A DNA stretch of 37,380 nucleotides from Escherichia phage vB_EcoS-569R4. Position 1 is the first letter of the stretch. Every line of letters starts with the position of its first letter. This document shows positions 2,952 through 3,386 of the stretch, piece after piece. The DNA lies in the sequence record ON470598, one strand, 5' to 3'. Both the position numbers and the translations under genes were made by a program. The notes under the pieces are model-generated. The model made no database searches. It was not told the DNA's origin and saw only the letters and a list, made by a program, of their open reading frames with translations.

Positions 2952-3386
2952 ATGTCCGGTAATATCTATACGCTGTACAAATCCCACTGTGAAAATGTTG
3001 GAAAGTATCGGGGCATTGAAATCAGTGGGGTAGTGTCATCAGTCGAAATAAGCAAAGTTGAATCAAGGGCAACATTACTTACTCTTTTGGACCTTGTCTT
3101 ACATGAGCACCGGAAGAAATTCGGCACTCCCTATAATCAGTTGAATGGGAAAAAGGCTCTGGTTCACCTTATTCTGATGAAGCATCACTGGATGCCAAAA
3201 CAGATTAATGAGATGAAATTTGATGAACTTCTTCTTTCAATTCAGGATGAACTCACACTTGATAAAATAAGCGTAACCGCCCAGAAATTTTTAGATTATC
3301 GAGACTGGAGATCACAAATTCATCACTTTGATGATTTTGACGAAAATGAATGGGATCCTAATTTGTCTGCACAATATCTAAAGTAA
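2952..3386 (+). CDS. hypothetical AT-rich orphan protein (144 aa) beside the immunity region
   Basis: ORF on the strand opposite the surrounding early-left genes, with its own SD-like AAGGA and a visibly lower GC content than its flanks; no motif recognised. Confidence 0.55.
   Translation: MSGNIYTLYKSHCENVGKYRGIEISGVVSSVEISKVESRATLLTLLDLVLHEHRKKFGTPYNQLNGKKALVHLILMKHHWMPKQINEMKFDELLLSIQDELTLDKISVTAQKFLDYRDWRSQIHHFDDFDENEWDPNLSAQYLK

Follow-up and report, generated by a model that had tools for sequence, protein, structure and literature searches.

An ECs1072-family prophage gene forms a conserved antisense pair with a YdfC-family gene of the lytic programme

The open reading frame (ORF) at positions 2952..3386 (+ strand) of Escherichia phage vB_EcoS-569R4 (record ON470598; the 37,380 nucleotides (nt) analysed are referred to here as the window) encodes a member of the ECs1072 family. 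Comparison of family loci shows that it is one half of a conserved, mobile two-gene prophage module, the other half being a small YdfC-family gene that faces it on the opposite strand and overlaps its 3' end. The ORF list gives the gene an ATG start and 144 codons, and a Shine-Dalgarno sequence, AAGGA, lies at 2941-2945 (+), 6 nt upstream of the ATG. Its GC content is 0.379, compared with 0.517 over the window as a whole and 0.50-0.54 in the genes to its left, which places it in the lowest 4.8% among 435-nt windows. A first-pass annotation made from the sequence had described an AT-rich ORF of 144 amino acids (aa) with its own Shine-Dalgarno sequence, located beside the immunity region, opposed to the early-left operon and overlapping the first leftward early gene by 29 nt. 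All of this was confirmed: the overlap is at 3358-3386, cI, encoding an S24/HTH repressor, is at 3812-4438 (-), cro is at 4536-4736 (+), and a PL-like promoter runs leftward from 3758 to 3730. The ORF is a real gene, far beyond chance, since a full-length family exists and the AlphaFold2 model has a predicted local distance difference test (pLDDT) score of 94.

The 144-aa protein matched NCBIfam NF033230, 'ECs1072 family phage-associated protein', with 157.8 bits (E 1.7e-46, cut-off 70 bits), residues 4-144 aligning to profile positions 2-142 of 142. It also matched phrog_5286 over residues 1-144 (302 bits, E 1.5e-90). The identical protein is named 'ECs1072 family phage-associated protein' by the Prokaryotic Genome Annotation Pipeline (PGAP), and proteins of 100% identity occur in Shigella phage SfIV (SfIV_36), vB_EcoM-689R6 and Kati. 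The earlier description of the gene as an orphan with no family recognised is thereby overturned. At 95% identity or higher, the gene was found in 416-422 of 5426 complete E. coli genomes (~7.7%). A profile search of 1.8 billion representative proteins returned 76 clusters at 50% identity, nearly all of them stand-alone proteins of 145-155 aa. Named members come from Enterobacterales only (Salmonella, Yersinia, Pectobacterium, Proteus, Morganella, Pantoea and Serratia), and viral-contig searches using distant family members gained only one further locus.

In an alignment of 48 members, W134 is invariant and L50, R54, L64, G66, A69 and H72 are nearly so. The AlphaFold2 model built from this alignment is all-helical, with a predicted TM-score of 0.88, and the protein is predicted to be a soluble helical bundle; no hydrophobic stretch of transmembrane length is visible in it by inspection. 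Foldseek comparison of the model with the PDB and BFVD returned no meaningful relative (all E>0.6). Sequence profile searches of the PDB were empty whether the query was the 144-aa protein, the alignment of 48 members or these members themselves, and the same queries had no match in Pfam or PADLOC. No PADLOC-DB v2.0.0 family matched the ORF or its partner at E<=1, and none matched three distant family members and their three partners at E<=0.1. The 144-aa protein had no match to SieB (PF14163) or to RexA/RexB in Pfam, PHROG or PADLOC. The profile and structure searches proposed by the first-pass annotation thus led to a named family, and to no structural relative and no SieB, Rex or PADLOC match. 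An identity as a HEPN or other RNase was considered and dropped, there being no HEPN match or fold and no Rx4-6H motif.

The convergent partner at 3358..3564 (-) encodes 68 aa from the ATG at 3564 and is the first gene downstream of PL; a start at the TTG at 3579 would give 73 aa. It matched phrog_1744 at 7.8e-35 and corresponds to PGAP annotation WP_000549623.1. In tblastn searches it aligned over 97% of its length, at ~40% identity, with phage genes that carry the annotation ydfC or 'YdfC family'. A hidden Markov model (HMM) of the partner's N-terminal domain matched E. coli K-12 YdfC (b1573) at 2.3e-13, and the N-terminal motif EPxIxAPxYTDxExYEWM is common to the partner and YdfC proteins. 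These similarities assign the partner to the YdfC family. No native function of YdfC was found in the literature.

The ECs1072 genes of distant relatives likewise have an ORF on the opposite strand that is convergent and overlaps the 3' end, and these partners share the N-terminal motif (E/Q)P.(I/F/L)(Y/F/V)..(G/P/A)D.(T/S/N)..(E/Q)L..W(L/M). To measure the pairing, every ORF of all fetched loci was translated and searched with HMMs of both ECs1072 and the partner. An ECs1072-family ORF was present at 23 loci, corresponding to ~15 non-redundant contexts, and the convergent partner was found in 14 of these ~15, at all loci except L011. The partner matches include six loci outside the set from which the HMM was built. 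Elsewhere in the ~200 kb searched, the partner HMM matched K-12 ydfC, a similar gene in phage Evi and, in a Proteus locus, a second copy, and nothing else. The first-pass description of a single ORF holds for the ORF itself and misses the pair: the overlapping leftward YdfC-family gene is no bystander. In that Proteus prophage (L016), two tandem YdfC-type genes (4849-5070 and 4233-4610) lie beside the ECs1072 gene; one of them overlaps it, and the other, of 73 aa, is much closer to the window's partner.

The 3' overlap measures 29 nt in the window and 62-227 nt in relatives. The overlap zone (3351..3386) includes the palindrome TGGGATCC at 3351-3358, and the same core and frame are found in relatives. 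In the window, ST64B, Serratia and Pantoea P2-like loci, TGGGATCC encodes (W)DP in both genes with the same frame relation; the partner in the window stops at a TAG (3358-3360) where relatives have TGG. The palindrome is also found at 3247-3254 in L003, at 6391-6398 in L010 and at 4421-4428 in both L017 and L019. By these features the overlap is homologous across clades, and the invariant W134 may be under dual-coding constraint via TGGGATCC. The pairwise identity matrices of the two families correlate (Spearman 0.50, a value reached by 0 of 5000 permutations), indicating that the ECs1072 and YdfC-type families co-diversify.

The module was found in four independent operon contexts. In the window, E. 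albertii, Yersinia, Pectobacterium, Proteus and Morganella it has the early-left operon on one side and cI on the other; ST64B, Klebsiella phage KPP5665-2 and Serratia carry it in the late region, flanked by a Q-type gene and the holin; P2-like prophages of Pantoea and Erwiniaceae have it within the cox-side early operon; and in Sakai Sp4 it lies in the early-right operon, between a cII-like gene and a replication gene. The Sakai Sp4 gene is the family namesake, ECs1072, now ECs_5703. In all four contexts the small gene runs along the lytic operon and the ECs1072 gene is opposed to it. In a Yersinia prophage (L012), a sieB gene (PF14163) at 4827-5321 lies directly downstream of the ECs1072 homologue, on the same strand and before the repressor, an arrangement which suggests that the homologue and the SieB-family gene share a lysogen-expressed transcript.

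Expression data are available for two homologues. Owen et al. 2020 (PMC7067206) reported that STMMW_20121 of prophage ST64B has its own promoter, from which it is transcribed antisense to lytic genes under nearly every condition, and listed it as a candidate 'accessory or regulatory' gene. In their Table S5 it is located at 2090066-2090500 (435 nt), beside the holin, with a 71-nt overlap with STMMW_20131. The ST64B homologue and Sb50 in locus L003 have exactly this geometry, and from the identical length, holin neighbour and overlap we take the L003 pair to be STMMW_20121 and STMMW_20131 (= Sb50). The homologue is a true family member, matching phrog_5286 at 2e-17 and the ECs1072-family HMM at 2e-42. 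It resembles the window's gene in its 435-nt length, antisense position and overlapping partner. It differs in being only ~27% identical to the window protein and in lying in the late region (Q/holin), not beside cI. Owen et al. 2020 (PMC7067206) did not link STMMW_20121 to the ECs1072 family, did not note the conserved partner and gave no function.

In the published data (PMC7067206), STMMW_20121 was expressed at 60-270 transcripts per million (TPM) in 16 of 17 conditions and at 4.9 TPM in late stationary phase, and its partner STMMW_20131 at 22-258 TPM over the 17 conditions. The neighbouring lytic genes are described as silent; the corresponding ranges were 0.35-33 TPM for the holin, 1.5-7 for STMMW_20141 and 0.8-4.6 for Q. 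From InSPI2 to peroxide shock to nitric oxide (NO) shock, STMMW_20121 went from 269 to 113 to 105 TPM and the partner from 108 to 148 to 258 TPM; peroxide and NO shock are the conditions where ST64B lytic genes switch on (PMC7067206). In ST64B a strong promoter-like site immediately precedes the partner, and terminator-like sites lie on the - strand ahead of the holin and on the + strand 45 nt beyond the stop codon of the ECs1072 homologue. From the positions of these sites, the sense and antisense transcripts should overlap over the full length of the gene. Sakai ECs1072 was detected on arrays in uninduced culture and dropped 4.4-fold (log2 -2.13) on entering stationary phase. The lysogen expression foreseen by the first-pass annotation is thus borne out for the homologues STMMW_20121 and Sakai ECs1072.

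The leader of the window's gene contains two direct repeats, CTGGTTAT(T)CCCCAACAAC, with copy L1 at 2884-2907 and copy L2 at 2916-2937 (+), whose core CCCCAWCAACAAG occurs twice in the window vs 0.12 expected. These upstream repeats had been noted before; a third, inverted copy (R, 3591..3611, +), between the partner start and the terminator, had been overlooked. The leader can be aligned with the sequences that precede the family genes of Yersinia, Pectobacterium, Proteus, Morganella and Serratia. At the equivalent place, five other genera have better sigma-70-like hexamers, for example TTGCCA-16-TATTCT in Proteus, and the window has a weak, positionally conserved promoter candidate (-35 TTCCCC at 2892-2897, 17-nt spacer, -10 TAATCT at 2915-2920, +). 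We infer that the leader holds the promoter of the ECs1072 gene. At the other end is an intrinsic terminator at 3623..3650 (+), AAGCGTCC..GGGCGCTTTTTTG, whose predicted fold has an 8-bp stem containing five G-C pairs and a T6 tail and which ends the rightward cargo transcript just ahead of PL and cI. Two other explanations of the repeats were dropped. Pairing of a conserved RNA hairpin was not conserved in the leader alignment by inspection, and a sigma-54 promoter or DnaA boxes were unconvincing, likewise by inspection only.

Alignment with other E. coli prophages identified the interval between an STnc100-like region and PL as a swap slot. The slot holds at least five unrelated + strand cargoes with GC contents of 0.38-0.43, each with the L1 repeat before it and the same + strand terminator after it. 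The first is the ECs1072 gene with its partner; the others are a 171-aa coiled-coil protein with CxxC pairs (L005), a 159/164-aa protein with two transmembrane segments (L006 and L030), a 167-aa protein (L031) and a 170-aa protein with a signal peptide and weak similarity to LprI (L032). Pfam and PADLOC searches assigned no function to the alternative cargoes. In SfV and strain 127 the slot contains orf33 (-), without the repeats and without the terminator. The slot flanks are carried by ~1880 of 5426 E. coli genomes. Since the slot takes unrelated cargoes, or none, in otherwise near-identical prophages, the module is dispensable for the basic phage programme. The gene has further features of a moron, namely its own terminator, atypical GC, patchy presence in similar phages and antisense orientation to the early-left operon. 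The proposal that it is a cargo gene is therefore upheld by a slot with at least five unrelated + strand genes and by a family that is always antisense to the lytic operon; comparison of these loci supports its description as a cargo (moron) gene in a prophage accessory cassette.

In this slot the cargo is flanked by inverted copies of a ~20-nt motif, AATCTGGTTATCCCCAACAA and TTGTTGATGGGGACCAGATT. The inverted copy is retained in the cargo cassettes of L005 and L006 with its sequence changed on both arms; in L005 ~15 of 16 positions of the arms pair (by inspection), and complementarity is also kept in the second cassette. The inverted repeat could be a recombination boundary or could reflect pairing of the 5' and 3' untranslated regions. 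The flanking repeat is absent in other genera, and we rejected it as a defining part of the module, as it is confined to the E. coli/E. albertii slot.

The reading we tentatively prefer, as a real possibility that falls short of an even chance, is that the ECs1072 gene encodes a lysogen-expressed accessory or defence effector that is shut off in lytic growth by its antisense-encoded partner. This reading draws on the lysogen transcription of homologues, the unmatched fold, the convergent overlapping partner, the strict polarity and the dispensability of the module. In a lysogen, cI would shut PL, and the ECs1072 gene would be transcribed rightward from ~2926 to the terminator at 3650, giving an mRNA antisense to the entire partner gene. 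The protein would serve the lysogen as an accessory effector, directed most likely at superinfecting phages. On induction, or on infection by a partner-carrying phage, transcription from PL would yield the partner protein, and the PL transcript would read antisense through the entire ECs1072 gene. Effector synthesis would then be stopped through transcriptional interference or RNA duplex formation, while pre-existing effector would be neutralised by the partner protein and the prophage's own lytic growth spared. That the protein is an effector, that phages are its target and that the partner inhibits it are the steps that we infer, and superinfection exclusion, as first proposed for this gene, is at this stage a hypothesis.

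The closest documented system is the Tha-Ith pair of S. aureus prophages, for which defence activity and its inhibition have been demonstrated (Rostol et al. 2024, PMC11087260). In both systems a small gene overlaps a larger one from the other strand, the larger being expressed in the lysogen in the case of tha and, to judge from homologues, probably here too. The sense/antisense arrangement of each implies that induction would move expression from the large to the small gene, a pattern that the TPM values of the ST64B pair fit, although that partner is expressed in lysogens as well. Both systems are conserved within a temperate phage group, beside the lysogeny control region. The resemblance is architectural only. 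There is no similarity of sequence or fold, Tha being a HEPN RNase whereas the ECs1072 protein has no HEPN match or Rx4-6H motif. Moreover, tha is in the cI operon and ith has its own constitutive opposing promoter (PMC11087260), whereas here, in mirror image, the large gene has its own putative promoter and the small gene rides the lytic operon.

Several observations weigh against this effector-and-inhibitor reading. No phenotype is known for any ECs1072-family member, and nothing in PADLOC, in Pfam or among solved defence proteins resembles the protein, so that the case for defence comes from context alone. The evidence for lysogen expression comes from homologues, and a standard promoter scan, at 9 of 12, found no convincing sigma-70 promoter upstream of it in the window. 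Lysogens of ST64B also express the partner, at levels near those of the ECs1072 homologue, and the two genes are therefore not strictly mutually exclusive there. The partner match in Sakai is weak (E 3.4e-4) though correctly placed, and L011 has a family member without a partner, the only such case. YdfC-type genes are common where there is no ECs1072 gene (Qin, Evi and PPompW phages), so YdfC may have a function of its own, and the effector and inhibitor roles could be reversed.

In such a reversal, which we consider unlikely, the YdfC-family protein would be the active early-lytic factor, in host takeover or anti-defence, and the ECs1072 protein its lysogen-expressed antagonist, either buffering leaky expression of the partner or excluding related phages by neutralising an early protein that they need. 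Many prophages have a solitary YdfC gene as a promoter-proximal early gene, and ECs1072 genes are almost never found without a YdfC partner, as expected if YdfC were the required target. Orphan antidotes are, however, equally expected if YdfC is the inhibitor. The literature gives no function for YdfC, and neither sequence marks which of the two proteins is the effector.

A regulatory device, to which we assign a similarly low probability, would use convergent ECs1072 transcription to brake or insulate early transcription from PL, PR, PR' or the P2 early promoter, with the two proteins tuning its timing; the pair would serve the phage's own lysis-lysogeny programme and have no role against other phages. 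The module always lies within a lytic operon and faces it, the ST64B module fills the interval from the strong promoter-like site to the terminator-like site before the holin, and Owen et al. class STMMW_20121 as 'accessory or regulatory' (PMC7067206). On the other hand, the module is dispensable in the E. coli slot, which takes unrelated cargoes or none in near-identical prophages, and interference alone does not require two conserved proteins.

Nor do we think it probable that the gene is a lysogenic-conversion moron of the usual kind, directed at host physiology (stress, growth phase or virulence), its link to ydfC reflecting recombination history rather than function. Low GC, the gene's own leader and terminator and a slot shared with signal-peptide and membrane proteins would fit this, as would the growth-phase dependence of Sakai ECs1072 and the fall of STMMW_20121 to 4.9 TPM in late stationary phase. 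Hitchhiking would nevertheless leave unexplained a homologous 3' overlap that persists across five clades and four operon types and down to ~20% identity. A toxin-antitoxin-like addiction pair, which would stabilise the prophage without sensing phages, is least likely of all: the larger protein does have a small coiled-coil partner, ST64B lysogens express both and mobile elements carry them, but convergent genes are unlike co-directional type II operons, the 144-aa protein is not a small hydrophobic type I toxin, and Pfam, NCBIfam and PADLOC contain no toxin-antitoxin family or domain that matches the pair.

Other prophage systems share parts of this arrangement. SieB/Esc and RexAB have the same location beside cI and presumed lysogen expression, and differ in having no homology to the ECs1072 protein and in that SieB and RexB span the membrane, whereas the ECs1072 protein has no such segment by inspection. 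In P22, sieB is accompanied by Esc, a product for escape from its own exclusion, and by the antisense RNA sas. BstA/aba (Owen et al. 2021) is likewise a prophage defence gene that adjoins the repressor and has built-in self-immunity; there, however, the self-immunity element is DNA inside the gene, not a partner protein or antisense gene, and BstA has no sequence similarity to the ECs1072 protein (PADLOC negative). The ECs1072 family is already named, and one member, STMMW_20121, has already been flagged in the literature; searches of the literature by accession and family identifier returned nothing. In the papers searched we found no account of YdfC as a conserved antisense partner, of the polarity rule, of the dual-coding overlap or of the E. 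coli swap slot.

The remaining features concern the surroundings of the module. The window is from an SfV/SfIV-like phage, and its segment 2400-4800 is 99.6% identical to Escherichia phage vB_EcoM-689R6. The early-left genes yfdP, yfdQ and yfdR are located further to the left of the ECs1072 gene. The left border of the slot, outside the module and downstream of it in the early-left transcript, is an STnc100-like prophage small RNA (sRNA) region at 2618..2841 (-). It matched the full model of Rfam RF02076 with 44.2 bits (E 1.3e-7), just below the gathering score of 47, and the segment is GC-rich (0.54) and structured; an Rfam scan of the whole window at gathering thresholds returned nothing. 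A weak DicF-like match was seen at 2626-2680. In near-identical genomes PGAP calls this stretch (2500-2880) a 'frameshifted hypothetical protein', probably by mistaking an sRNA region for a gene. Between the STnc100-like region and yfdP there is a 25-nt inverted repeat (2532-2556 and 2596-2620; 84% complementary, 39-nt loop), which may add another structured element to the early-left RNA.

This part of the window resembles the Qin dicBF operon (ydfA-ydfB-ydfC-dicF-dicB) in its series of a repressor, an early promoter, a ydfC-type gene, a structured sRNA region and further early genes, with the STnc100-like segment corresponding to the ydfC-dicF spacer. Qin differs in having no ECs1072 gene between ydfC and dicF, and in having dicB and ydfD where the window has yfdP, yfdQ and yfdR.

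The PL-like promoter (TTGCCA-17-TAGATT, 3730-3758, -) lies within repeats of a CTTAGT half-site that recur around PR, which points to an operator. A perfect palindrome, ACTAAGTAATCTTAGT (4460-4475), together with CTTAGT half-sites at 3735-3800 and 4505-4530, flanks the PR-side and PL-side promoters, and these elements are likely the cI/Cro operators of this immunity type. Further right, the ymfL (Phage_CP76-type) gene is marked as frameshifted by PGAP in near-identical prophages (4475-5027 in L004), and the ymfL-like region of the window at the cII position (~4775-5330) is likewise broken into several ORFs (4660-4869 and 4958-5326). A second and stronger low-GC island lies at ~10350-12385, with GC down to 0.28. 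It contains overlapping - strand ORFs at 10651..11199 (182 aa) and 11186..12112 (308 aa) amid + strand genes; the 308-aa protein has no match in Pfam or PADLOC. These ORFs look like another moron or defence candidate.

Even without a role in defence, the dual-coding 3' overlap and the strict polarity of the module relative to lytic operons need explaining. We hold as rather doubtful, and with less confidence than the effector-and-inhibitor reading itself, the broader proposal that ECs1072/YdfC is a widespread Enterobacterales prophage immune module in which an effector of unmatched fold is expressed in lysogens and blocks incoming phages and the YdfC-type protein is its cognate off-switch. If the effector-and-inhibitor reading is right, about 1 in 13 sequenced E. 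coli would carry an uncharacterised two-gene prophage system, which would also be present in many Salmonella, Shigella, Yersinia, Klebsiella, Proteus and Pantoea prophages. The logic of Tha-Ith, with defence in the lysogen and an antisense antidote in the lytic programme, would have been reached with unrelated proteins and an unmatched fold. The swap slot beside cI in SfV-like prophages would be a place to seek further accessory genes, and K-12 YdfC would have a testable role. On the broader proposal, the module would be an independently arisen Gram-negative counterpart of Tha-Ith. Solitary ydfC genes that open an early operon, that of K-12 Qin among them, would be orphan anti-defence genes, and a long-standing y-gene would thereby acquire a function.

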